Assembly: GCA_016195765.1 (NCBI GenBank)
Contig: JACPYZ010000069.1
Coordinates: 1 to 27,584 of the forward strand
Source: Candidatus Curtissbacteria bacterium
GTDB taxonomy: Bacteria > Patescibacteriota > Microgenomatia > Curtissbacterales > GWA2-41-24
DNA length: 27,584 bases
Direction of reading: 5' to 3'
The notes below the pieces were generated by a model, which saw nothing but the letters and a program-made list of their open reading frames with translations, was not told the origin of the DNA and did no database searches. Shown piece by piece: positions 10,621 through 14,417 of the stretch (positions are counted from its first letter, which is position 1; every line of letters begins with the position of its first letter). Made by a program: the position numbers and the translations under genes.

Positions 10621-10658
10621 TTGACAACAATTAGCACTCGTTGTATATTAAGTGCTAA
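10621..10658 (+). promoter_or_regulatory. hrcA operon promoter with an overlapping CIRCE-like operator (non-canonical spacer)
   Basis: TTGACA (10621-10626)-17-TATATT (10644-10649). Inverted repeat TTAGCACT (10631-10638) / AGTGCTAA (10651-10658) with 12 nt between the arms (canonical is 11). Confidence 0.9.
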
Positions 10659-10663
10659 CAACG

Positions 10664-11386
10664 ATGGACCTAACTGAAAGACAAAAAAAGTTACTAAGAG
10701 CCGTAATTGAAAAATACATCGAAACCGCAGAAGCTGTTGGTTCCGAAACCATAGAAAAAGAAGCCAGCCTTGGTGTTTCCCCAGCAACTATCCGCAACGA
10801 AATGGTCAGATTAACTTCTCTTGGCTACTTAAGGCAACCTCACACATCTGCCGGCCGTACCCCAACTTCTATGGGTATGAAGTTTTTTGTAGATTCTCTT
10901 ATGGAAGAAAAATCTCTATCGCTGAAAGATGAAGTAGCCATAAAAGAAGAACTTTCAGACGATCCTAAAACCTTCAACAAACTCCTGCGTCATACAGCTC
11001 AATCTTTAGCAAACCAAACTCATTCACTAGCAATTGCAACCAACGAAGACGATGAAGTTTTCGCTTCCGGTATGGCAAACATTTTAGATATGCCAGAATT
11101 TTTTGATATCGACATCACCCGTACGGTGCTTTCTTTGGTAGACAAAGTAGAAATGTTAGGTCAAATTTTCGATCAGCTTTCTCCACAAGACCAAATTAAA
11201 ATTTTATTTGGAGACGAACTTGGTGTTCCATATCTTGAACCGTGCGGTTTTGTGCTTACTCGTTATCAAGCACCGGGTCACACCGGCATGCTCGGCATAA
11301 TAGGTCCCAACAGGCTAAATTATCCAACAGTCATACCTACAATGCGCTACTTTTCACATCTTTTATCAGAAATATGGGGGGAATAA
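10664..11386 (+). CDS. hrcA: Heat-inducible transcription repressor HrcA, short form (240 aa)
   Basis: LTERQKKLLRAVIEKYI, VGS, SPATIRNEM, GYLRQPHTSAGRTPT (wHTH); GMANILDMPEF, GIIGPNRLNY (GAF-like). ATG 10664 lies within the ORF-track entry at 10652. Confidence 0.93.
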   Translation: MDLTERQKKLLRAVIEKYIETAEAVGSETIEKEASLGVSPATIRNEMVRLTSLGYLRQPHTSAGRTPTSMGMKFFVDSLMEEKSLSLKDEVAIKEELSDDPKTFNKLLRHTAQSLANQTHSLAIATNEDDEVFASGMANILDMPEFFDIDITRTVLSLVDKVEMLGQIFDQLSPQDQIKILFGDELGVPYLEPCGFVLTRYQAPGHTGMLGIIGPNRLNYPTVIPTMRYFSHLLSEIWGE

Positions 11387-11872
11387 ATGGCAAAAGCTAA
11401 AAAACAACCAGAGGAAAATAAAAACGAAGAACTAGAAAACCAACTTAAACGCGCCCTTGCGGATTATCAGAATCTAGAAAGGCGAGTTTCAGAAGAGCGA
11501 AAATTACTCTCACAACTTTCAACCGCGATTATTGTCGAAAAGTTTTTACCAATATTAGATAATTTGGAAGTAGCTCAATCTCACTTGAACGACCCCGGCC
11601 TGGCTATGGTTACCAAGCAATTCAAAGATGTTTTGGCAAGTGAAGGCATCGAAGAAATAGGCCAAGTCGGTGAGCAGTTCGATCCAAACTTGCACGAAGC
11701 AGCAGAAGTTGTTGTTGGAGAGAACCAAAATGCAGTCGTGAAAGTCATTAACAAAGGTTATAAAATGGAAGGTAAGGTCATAAGACCCGCTAAAGTCACT
11801 GTTTCCAGAAAATCAGAATCAGCGCAAGCCAGTGGGCAGGAGCAAGCAGAGCAAGGAGGATTAAATGAGTAA
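11387..11872 (+). CDS. grpE: Nucleotide exchange factor GrpE
   Basis: [48 protein letters not shown]. Confidence 0.95.
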
Positions 11873-13784
11873 AATTATTGGAATCGATTTAGGTACAACC
11901 AATTCATGTGTCGCCGTGGTCGAAGCTGGAAAACCAAAAGTGATTCATAGCGCAGAGGGAAGAAATACAATCCCATCTGTCGTTGACCCGGTCAAACATA
12001 TTGTCGGTGACGTTGCCAAACGTCAAATGATTGTTAATCCTAAAACTACAATTTTTTCTGTCAAAAGGTTAATGGGCCGCAAGTACAAAGACCCAGAAGT
12101 TCAACGTGATATCAAATGGCTTCCTTACGAAGTAAAAGAGGGTAGAGACGGTATGGCTGTAGTTTCTGTTGAAGGTCACGATTACACTCCTCAAGAAGTC
12201 TCGGCCATGATTCTGCAAAAAATTAAAGCAGATGCCGAAGCTTATCTTGGCGAAAAAGTCGAAAAAGCTGTGATTACGGTGCCAGCTTACTTTGACGATT
12301 CTCAAAGACAAGCAACTAAGCAAGCCGGAGAAATTGCTGGCCTGCAAGTTGAAAGAATCATCAATGAACCAACAGCGGCTGCGCTTGCCTATGGTTTGGA
12401 CAAATCCCACGCGCACACAATTGCCGTTTATGATTTAGGCGGTGGCACGTTCGATGTTTCAATTCTTGAGCTCGGAGAAGGCGTTTTTGAAGTTAAAGCC
12501 ACAAACGGTGACACCCATTTAGGTGGAGACGATTTTGATTCTAAAATTGTTGAATATCTAGTTGAACAATTTAAATCAGATTCAGGCGTCGATATCACCA
12601 AAGATCGTCCTGCGTTGCAAAGGCTAAGAGACGCTGCAGAAAAAGCAAAAATTGAACTTTCTACAACTCAAGAGACCGAAATTTCAATTCCATATTTAAC
12701 AGCGACCGATGCTGGTCCTCAACACTTGCAACTAAAACTAACAAGAGCAAAGTTAGAGTCAATTGTGACCGAACTTGTCGAAAAGACTTTTGGTCCAGTT
12801 AAGGATGTTTTAAAAGACGCTAAATTAGATGCTTCGAAAATAGACGAAGTAATCTTAGTCGGTGGCATGACCAGAATGCCTTTAATCGTCGAAAAAGTTA
12901 AAGCTTTCTTTGGCAAGGAACCAAACAAGAGCATTAACCCAGACGAAGTTGTCGCAATTGGTGCTGCTGTCCAAGGTGCAGTTCTCGGTGGCGAAATGAA
13001 AGAAATGGTTCTTTTAGATGTTACCCCGCTTACACTGGGTATCGAAACTTTGGGCGGCGTTTCTACACCGCTTATTTCCAGAAACACTACAGTTCCAACT
13101 TCAAAAACTGAAGTCTTCTCGACGGCTTCTGATAACCAAACTTCTGTTGACATTAACGTTTTGCAAGGCGAAAGACCAATGGCAGCCGATAACAAGTCTT
13201 TAGGTCGCTTCATCTTAGATGGCATTCCACCAGCACCTCGTGGGGTTCCTCAAGTAGAAGTTACTTTCGATATCGATGCTAGCGGTATTCTTTCTGTTAA
13301 AGCCAAAGACAAAGCAACCAATAAAGAACAATCTATAAAAATCACAGGTTCAACTGGTCTAACAGACGAAGAAATTGCACGTATGACCAAAGAGGCAGAA
13401 GAACATGCCAAAGAAGACGAAGCTAAAAAAGAAGAAATCGAAGCCAGAAACCACGCAGATTCGTTAATCTATCAAGCCGAAAAAGCTTTAAAAGATGGGG
13501 GAGACAAAGTACCTGCAGATGTTAAAACAGAAGTAGAAGAAAAGATTAAAGCCCTAAAAGATATTTCGGCAGCCGGCGCCATTGAAGATGTTAAAACAAA
13601 AACCGAAGAGCTTTCTACGTCTCTTTCCAAAATAGGTCAATCTATGTACGGCCAGCAGGGCGAGTCTGGTGCTCAAAGTCAAACGGGGGCAACAGACTCC
13701 GAAGCTGGCGGAGACGAAAAATCTACAGAAGATAAGAAAAAAGACGAAGGCGATGTTCAGGAAGGGGAAGTTGTTAAAGAATAA
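11865..13784 (+). CDS. dnaK: Chaperone DnaK (Hsp70)
   Basis: [66 protein letters not shown]; SD AAGGAGGA at 11853-11860. Confidence 0.98.
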
Positions 13785-14206
13785 TGGCAAATCTTACAAC
13801 AGAATTATTTGTTCTTTGTGATTACGCTTCTATTTCCCAAGAGCAAAAGCTTTCGGTGATTGGTATTTTCGACCAATTTTTTGCAGCCAACATTCCAACT
13901 ACTTGGCCGCGTATGTTTTTGGTCGCAGTTTTAAAAGGCGAGCCAGGTAAACAATACCCCTTAACATTAAAGTTAGTTTCTCCAGCTCCAGATCAAAACT
14001 TCCCAGAAAAAACAGTCGAGGTGTCACTGGGTAATAATGGCAAAGCAAACTTGTTAACAGAACTTGTTAATTTTCCGCTAAATGCCCCAGGTGTTCATAA
14101 ATTCGAAATCACCACCAGCAACGAAGTTGTTGGCAGGCTAGAATTTAACGTCACCAAAACTACCGCTTCTTACGACGGCCAAATCGCTAAAAAACCGGCA
14201 AACTAA
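13784..14206 (+). CDS. DUF6941-like hypothetical protein
   Basis: LCDYA..Q.QKLSVIGIFD N-terminal pattern; beta-rich; F..PG.HKF near the C-terminus; start overlaps the dnaK stop (TAATG). Confidence 0.65.
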   Translation: MANLTTELFVLCDYASISQEQKLSVIGIFDQFFAANIPTTWPRMFLVAVLKGEPGKQYPLTLKLVSPAPDQNFPEKTVEVSLGNNGKANLLTELVNFPLNAPGVHKFEITTSNEVVGRLEFNVTKTTASYDGQIAKKPAN

Positions 14207-14207
14207 A

Positions 14208-14417
14208 ATGGTTGAAGTAAGAAATTCAAAATCACCGCTGTATGATAGAGGTCCGAGAAGATCTGACAACGCAGTAACTGTTCAACCAGGACCCGTCCCC
14301 ATTAAAATTACAAACCGCGAACCTGGGGTTTTTGGTCAGTATTTTCCGCATCCTTTTAATAAATATCCAGGGTCGCCTCGTTTCAAAAGAGAAGTTGATC
14401 GTAGAGGTCCTAGATAA
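14208..14417 (+). CDS. 69-aa Pro/Arg-rich hypothetical protein
   Basis: ATG lies 1 nt after the preceding stop and the ORF ends 27 nt before dnaJ. No recognisable family. Confidence 0.5.
   Translation: MVEVRNSKSPLYDRGPRRSDNAVTVQPGPVPIKITNREPGVFGQYFPHPFNKYPGSPRFKREVDRRGPR

Follow-up and report, generated by a model that had tools for sequence, protein, structure and literature searches.

The window analyzed here, a stretch of 27,584 nt of Microgenomates DNA, carries a heat-shock locus in which a true HrcA orthologue of the standard short form of the CPR, one without the inserted dimerizing domain, lies behind a CIRCE operator that is one base longer than the canonical one. What is new here, on the known HrcA/CIRCE system, is the lack of that domain in HrcA across the CPR together with a conserved, Microgenomates-specific polymorphism in which the 8-bp arms of the operator are set either 11 nt (N11) or 12 nt (N12) apart. 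According to the explanation that we favor, and which we consider likely when taken as a whole, hrcA, grpE, and dnaK form an ordinary autoregulated operon of the type found in the CPR, and one HrcA dimer most likely reads both the 27-bp (N11) and the 28-bp (N12) operators, possibly at different strength.

Operon, promoter, and operator of hrcA

The hrcA gene (10664..11386, forward strand, with the stop codon at 11384-11386) is the first gene of hrcA-grpE-dnaK behind a CIRCE, which is the genomic context looked for in an HrcA. The program that listed open reading frames placed its start at a GTG at 10652 (244 aa), inside the operator; the alignment with relatives begins at the ATG at 10664 (MDLTER...), which gives a protein of 240 aa. 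Since grpE (11387..11872, forward strand) starts on the base directly after the hrcA stop codon, we assigned both genes to the same operon, and the neighbor of hrcA in a relative has a PF01025 GrpE match. The end of grpE is overlapped by dnaK (11865..13784, forward strand), which was assigned by reading its translation as a typical Hsp70 and not by a profile. The interval from dnaK to dnaJ (window positions 13784-14417) holds two small open reading frames (140 and 69 aa), which, barring an internal promoter, would depend on the HrcA-controlled promoter for their transcription.

The promoter of the operon consists of a -35 hexamer TTGACA (10621..10626, forward strand) and a -10 hexamer TATATT (10644..10649, forward strand) separated by 17 nt, and it agrees with the consensus at 11 of 12 positions. 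The operator is interleaved with these elements. Four nucleotides after TTGACA, in a layout that is conserved class-wide, comes the left CIRCE arm TTAGCACTC (10631..10639, forward strand), which is located between the -35 and -10 hexamers and is at least 90% conserved in the hrcA and lon promoters of the family. The right arm AGTGCTAA (10651..10658, forward strand) covers the expected transcription start and is separated from the 8-bp left arm by 12 nt. The full 28-bp operator, TTAGCACT-N12-AGTGCTAA (10631..10658, no strand assigned), agrees with the CIRCE consensus at 8/8 positions in each arm, and its ninth pair is C against A, which are non-complementary. This pattern has its sole match in the window at this site, was absent from 100 shuffles, and has 0 matches expected by chance. 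The original prediction, made from the letters of this DNA, that the operator exceeds the canonical fixed spacing (11 nt between the 8-mers) by one base and straddles the -10 box, with TATATT inside its spacer, was therefore confirmed on both counts.

The site is found at the promoter of class I heat-shock genes and is conserved in relatives, as is the rule for the location of a CIRCE. Only 5 nt separate the right arm from the hrcA ATG and no Shine-Dalgarno sequence was visible before this codon (window positions 10651-10666), so that the hrcA transcript is probably leaderless or nearly so; the distance from right arm to ATG ranges from 5 to 316 nt in relatives.

Classical HrcA binds CIRCE as a dimer and its activity is GroEL-dependent. 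Few bacterial operators are conserved as rigidly as CIRCE, and most regulon scans presuppose its fixed spacing. In the Bacillus subtilis paradigm, the class I consensus is TTAGCACTC-N9-GAGTGCTAA (PMC7464140). Our locus shares with this type of system an orthologous repressor (above the TIGR00331 cut-off), the arm sequence, the hrcA-grpE-dnaK operon, the groES target, and the position of the operator across the core promoter and transcription start. It differs in having a repressor without the inserted domain, a -10 box enclosed in the spacer, and, in the hrcA and lon operators, a spacer of 10 nt instead of 9 between the 9-mers, with the ninth pair unpaired; in addition, lon would belong to the regulon, judging from its promoter. 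For HrcA of the Campylobacter/Helicobacter type, the binding sites are CIRCE-like repeats that cover the core promoter (PMC7464140).

The short HrcA and its distribution

The 240-aa protein matched the HrcA model TIGR00331 above its cut-off (204.7 bits against 197.2), and did so in two stretches, the first of which places residues 4-128 on positions 1-126 of the 338 of the model. Matches above the cut-off were also obtained for PF01628 (75.1 against 22.2) and PF03444 (27.2 against 21). When aligned by MAFFT with six full-length HrcAs (337-354 aa), the protein showed a single gap that opens after residue 127 and spans about 100 columns, falling between ...SLAIATN and EDDEVFASG..., and the conserved block GMANILDMPEF...GIIGPNR of the GAF-like C-terminal domain aligned with the full-length proteins.

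An AlphaFold2 model of the protein (pLDDT 89.4, pTM 0.85) had as its best Foldseek match 1STZ, the crystal structure of Thermotoga maritima HrcA (Liu et al. 2005, J Mol Biol 350:987, as cited in PMC13750654). Both the winged helix and the GAF-like domain fit onto this structure, with a TM-score by query of 0.77-0.79, the alignment taking 327-337 columns for the 240 residues. Specifically, residues 3-94 align to residues 15-106 of 1STZ, the winged helix-turn-helix, which in the model comprises helices at 5-21, 27-34, and 40-52 and a wing at 65-67. On the other hand, some 95-100 residues of 1STZ have no counterpart: the inserted dimerizing domain, which takes up about 100 aa within the GAF-like domain of 1STZ, is absent, and the model has a short hairpin in its place (strands 122-126 and 132-135). 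To our knowledge, 1STZ is the only solved HrcA structure, and it is said to be a three-domain HrcA with a dimer held mainly by the inserted domain. This domain is a feature of the solved structure and not of the curated family models, and the window's HrcA passes those models. The alignment gap, the split TIGR00331 match, and the fit to 1STZ together uphold what had been proposed from the letters, namely an HrcA of 240 aa lacking the inserted domain at exactly this point. One detail of that description had to be corrected: in the AlphaFold2 model SLAIAT does not end a helix and is the first beta strand of the hairpin.

Other short regulators resemble this protein to a lesser degree. The HrcA of Campylobacter and Helicobacter (NCBIfam NF003033, model length 264) is also much shorter than 340 aa, but the window's HrcA matches that model over residues 4-113 only, with 63 bits against a cut-off of 248, and is thus not a member. 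Regulators of the IclR family (about 250 aa), the next Foldseek matches, have a similar size and the same layout of a winged helix and a GAF-like effector domain; they differ in structure (TM about 0.3), in giving no sequence-family match, and in their operators and biology.

The class concerned is the Microgenomates of the CPR, in line with relatives titled Levy-, Shapiro-, Ames-, Woese-, Roizman-, and Blackburnbacteria. We searched 61 relatives representing 30 families of this class. An HrcA match was obtained for 58 of them, every complete gene encoded 237-247 aa, and the short form was present in all 30 families sampled. Short HrcAs (236-254 aa) were also found in loci titled Dojka-, Saccharibacteria, Doudna-, and Peregrinibacteria, and in a second CPR class the short form was present in 51/51 sampled genomes. 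No second hrcA-like gene was detected among the 61 relatives, nearly all of which had one match per genome. The possibility of two HrcA paralogues, one for each spacing, was rejected for these relatives, as the only genomes with two matches hold pieces of one gene.

A MAG labelled as Eubacteriales Family XIII encodes a 254-aa HrcA with the identical gap, behind a perfect N11 CIRCE. As the sequence of this HrcA resembles those of its full-length Firmicute neighbors, the comparison suggests that the domain may have been lost independently there. HrcAs of 244-254 aa occur in MAGs labelled as Eubacteriales Family XIII, Actinobacteria, and Binatia (loci L106, L107, L112, and L098), and these labels may be errors of binning or naming, or may mark independent losses. 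Our literature search found no paper that joins HrcA and Patescibacteria on the short form or on operator spacing, and none that uses the term "inserted dimerizing domain"; PMC8533110 holds no statement on HrcA domains.

Operator spacing within genomes and across lineages

The genome to which the window belongs (875 kb, 86% complete, 127 contigs) contains three credible CIRCE sites, at hrcA, lon, and groES. The hrcA operator (10631-10658) is N12 with 0 mismatches. The lon operator (G000:C74:3707-3734, equivalent to positions 1501-1528 of locus L002, in which lon starts at 1592) is N12 with 1 mismatch, and has the same TTGACA-N4-TTAGCACTC layout. The groES operator (positions 293-319 of locus L003, on G000:C111, with groES at 357) is N11 with 3 mismatches and lies directly after the -10 box. 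A similar distribution was observed across the family, in which the operator is N12 in 27/29 genomes at lon and in 20 of 28 loci at hrcA, the other 8 hrcA loci being N11. At groES, every detected site in the family is N11 and has the form TTAGCAGT-N11-AGTGCT[T/C]G, which is conserved family-wide despite its off-consensus outer right-arm bases and is the most degenerate of the sites (3-4 mismatches). The combination of N11 at hrcA with N12 at lon is common in the family (e.g., G004, G025, G008, and G001). Since there is a single hrcA gene per genome, functional sites would require one protein to serve both spacings.

These counts leave practically no chance that the extra base arose as a private indel or through faulty sequencing or assembly. 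Such a suspicion is natural for a locus known from a draft genome, but four further genomes of the family share the window's exact 28-mer, three independent ENA metagenome assemblies contain it as well, and N12 prevails in the hrcA and lon promoters of the family as a whole.

At lon, a promoter-embedded CIRCE was detected in 29/29 of those that could be read in the family, and likewise in 5 other sampled families, from which we take Lon to be probably under HrcA control across the Microgenomates. Among 26 lon promoters, conservation reaches at least 90% for TTGACA, TTAGCACTC, TGGTAT, and CTGCTAA (the last in the N12 register) and falls to 30-40% in the sequence just downstream. The right arm is thus conserved in the N12 register without having a role in the promoter, a pattern that points to its being kept by selection for a binding site. 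The same data bear on a different account of the N12 repeats, according to which HrcA no longer acts on them and they serve another factor or persist as promoter sequence only. The left arm and the spacer do overlap promoter elements (an extended -10), so that their conservation could in part be promoter-driven. However, the right-arm TGCTAA is located downstream of the -10 box, the arms are those of the CIRCE consensus, the sites precede classical HrcA targets (hrcA-grpE-dnaK, lon, and hsp20), and no second HrcA-like gene was found in the genomes searched; we consider this account improbable. Promoter geometry was likewise rejected as the cause of N12, as both forms have 17 nt between the -35 and -10 hexamers, with the extra base located after the -10 box.

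Beyond the family, 29 genomes from other Microgenomates families yielded 27 hrcA loci with a site (at most 3 mismatches), all of them N11. Further hrcA loci from Microgenomates and other CPR lineages were N11 wherever a site was found, except for a weak N10 match (3 mismatches) at one Dojkabacteria locus. The hrcA operator was also N11, and mostly perfect, in 36 Firmicute-labelled loci with full-length HrcA. A short HrcA is therefore not predictive of N12, since N11 is found elsewhere behind short HrcAs and both spacings coexist within the window's own family. An HrcA tree of that family requires 5 changes to explain the spacing label, and well-supported branches make at least 3 of these unavoidable. 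Being a midpoint-rooted gene tree of non-independent kin, it is taken here as evidence of repeated switching only. The congeners G004 (N11) and G029 (N12) have HrcAs that are 95.8% identical.

For a count at a larger scale, genomes containing TTAGCACT-N12-AGTGCTAA at no more than 1 mismatch were compared with a control in which the pattern was written backwards. N12 was detected in 36/201 genomes of Microgenomates (short HrcA, control 6), some of these matches being false positives inside recA, in 6/201 genomes of Bacilli (full-length HrcA, control about 22), and in 2/146 genomes of the second CPR class (short HrcA, control 3). At equal stringency, N11 was detected in 70/101 Microgenomates genomes against 1 in the control. 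These counts include one genome marked as unpublished, G099, on which none of our conclusions depend. As the second short-HrcA class shows no N12 excess, N12 is a recurrent peculiarity of the Microgenomates and not a general consequence of domain loss, and its excess in one short-HrcA class but not in the other points to a lineage-specific factor beyond the loss of the domain.

The only N12 promoters that we kept outside the family were those of lon in families f3 and f25 and of hsp20 in family f10. The lon operator is N12 in f3, which belongs to the same order as the window, and in three f25 genomes, one of which has a perfect N11 at hrcA. In f2 (also of the same order), f18, f22, and f11 the lon operator is N11. 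Most other N12 hexamer pairs outside the family had no -35 context, some were located inside recA or before rRNA-like sequence, and all of these were dropped.

Several further elements came to light during this survey. In family f29 (loci L224-L226, from G186, G059, and G159), a conserved TTAGCACT-N12-AGTGCCAA either closely precedes a RecA-like sequence or falls in its 5' part; this is probably a coincidence of coding sequence that inflates genome-wide N12 counts. Family f9 (L202, L204, L205, and L218) has TTAGCA-N16-TGCTAA followed by TTGGnnnTGAAT, with no -35 box where one would be expected and, in L205, an rRNA-like neighbor. Within one genus, the perfect palindrome TTAGCATGCTAACATGTTAGCATGCTAA is present on several contigs (G060:C3:66205; G187:C11:528, C13:12641, and C17:3053) and may be a repeat element. 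Three genomes of family f30 (L199, L200, and L209) share a conserved GGTGGGGAACCT-TTAGCACT-N12-AGTGCTAA, perfect in G174, which has no recognizable -35 box and precedes an open reading frame that is not a known chaperone. The two CPR classes also differ visibly in how promoter and operator interleave: the -10 box fills the spacer in Microgenomates, whereas in G426 and G427, two CPR genomes outside this class, TTGAC is found in the spacer of one perfect N11 CIRCE each (e.g., TTAGCACTCTACTTGACAGAGTGCTAA).

Taken together, these patterns bear on the cause that had first been suggested for the wider spacer. The original prediction held that the loss of the inserted domain altered the geometry of the dimer and that the operators shifted to N12 in compensation, the two co-evolving into a variant HrcA/CIRCE code. 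The perfect N12 site behind a short HrcA in the window fits this proposal, as does the enrichment of N12 in short-HrcA Microgenomates that is not seen in full-length-HrcA Bacilli. However, short HrcAs are accompanied by N11 in every other family sampled, as well as in other CPR lineages and the Firmicute-labelled MAG; groES keeps N11 in the same genome and family, in which both spacings thus occur side by side; near-identical HrcAs are found behind different spacings; and a class in which all HrcAs are short has no N12 excess. We consequently regard compensation for domain loss as highly improbable. The same prediction had allowed that short-HrcA relatives might mostly carry N11, in which case the extra base was to be read as a private indel or an error. 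The first part of this holds for 27/27 detectable loci in other families and the second does not, N12 being widespread in the window's own family.

A further proposal is that N12 sites are deliberately weakened operators. HrcA would then bind optimally at N11, the lower affinity at N12 would raise the basal levels of hrcA-dnaK and lon, and groES would be tightly repressed. This overlaps with our preferred explanation but predicts a clear gap in affinity between the two spacings. It would account for the gene-specific use of N12, which in the family predominates at lon and hrcA and never occurs at groES, and for its having arisen again independently at lon in f3 and f25. The inner two right-arm bases of N12 sites are, moreover, mostly off consensus (TC, AC, or AT, not AG), so that the right half-site could be weak. 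Yet five genomes have perfect 8+8 arms at N12, and the N11 site of groES is itself the most degenerate one, which is a misfit for tight control of groES and loose control of lon. We see in deliberate weakening a possible but rather doubtful explanation, and retain as the preferred one a single dimer that accepts both spacings.

Predicted dimer and the proposed reading of two spacings

Homodimer prediction for the window's HrcA gave an ipSAE of 0.45, compared with 0.00 for the best control; the mark applied to this score is reached by 20/30 proteins solved as one-chain pairs and by 1/23 solved as single chains. At least 92% of contacts were shared between runs, and the pLDDT of the partners was at least 84. 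The predicted interface (residues 105-116, 129-138, and 141-160) corresponds to the GAF-like face adjoining the deletion point. It overlaps the invariant or near-invariant columns G136, A138, N139, L141, D148, I149, T152, and L156 (including the stretch D148-L156) and flanks the invariant P144-E145-F146. The model supports the prediction that short HrcA pairs through its GAF-like face, and, by comparison with 1STZ, the predicted dimer would use this face only. The positive result for the homodimer may in part be a memory of the GAF-GAF contact in 1STZ.

In the mechanism that we propose, a symmetric HrcA dimer would form via the conserved GAF-like face next to the deletion point, and its winged helices, carried on long helical connectors, would bind both arms around the -10 box. 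The left arm would be held between the -35 and -10 hexamers and the right arm over the transcription start, and binding should exclude RNA polymerase because the inverted repeat is interleaved with the promoter. A dimer held by the GAF-like face only would tolerate one extra base pair, and the base added between the -10 box and the right arm would then represent a heritable operator variant, common in the family and sporadic elsewhere in the class. From arm identity, position, and conservation we infer that N12 sites would be occupied by HrcA. It would bind them as the predicted dimer, and the wider spacing may affect the strength of repression.

A more far-reaching interpretation combines these elements. 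Spacing specificity would be relaxed in the HrcA of Microgenomates, the additional base would act as a gene-specific dial of repression (lon and hrcA versus groES), and the inserted domain of classical HrcA would be, at least in part, a rigid ruler for the spacing. We put this forward tentatively, as an idea that we would sooner doubt than assert. Under it, domain loss would be necessary for flexibility but not sufficient, since another short-HrcA class does not use N12.

As regards the biology of these organisms, a whole radiation (the CPR) runs HrcA/CIRCE with a repressor that is missing the domain said to hold the 1STZ dimer together, and one class of this radiation conserves operators with an added base beside standard ones in the same genome. 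One practical consequence had been anticipated correctly by the original prediction, namely that CIRCE scans with fixed spacing miss such sites. These scans under-call the Microgenomates regulon, and in the window's own genome they would lose the operators of both hrcA and lon. Finally, the natural N11/N12 pairs constitute a test case for a two-fold repressor that faces a one-base shift of a half-site (about 3.4 Å and 36°), and they also bear on the role of the inserted domain.
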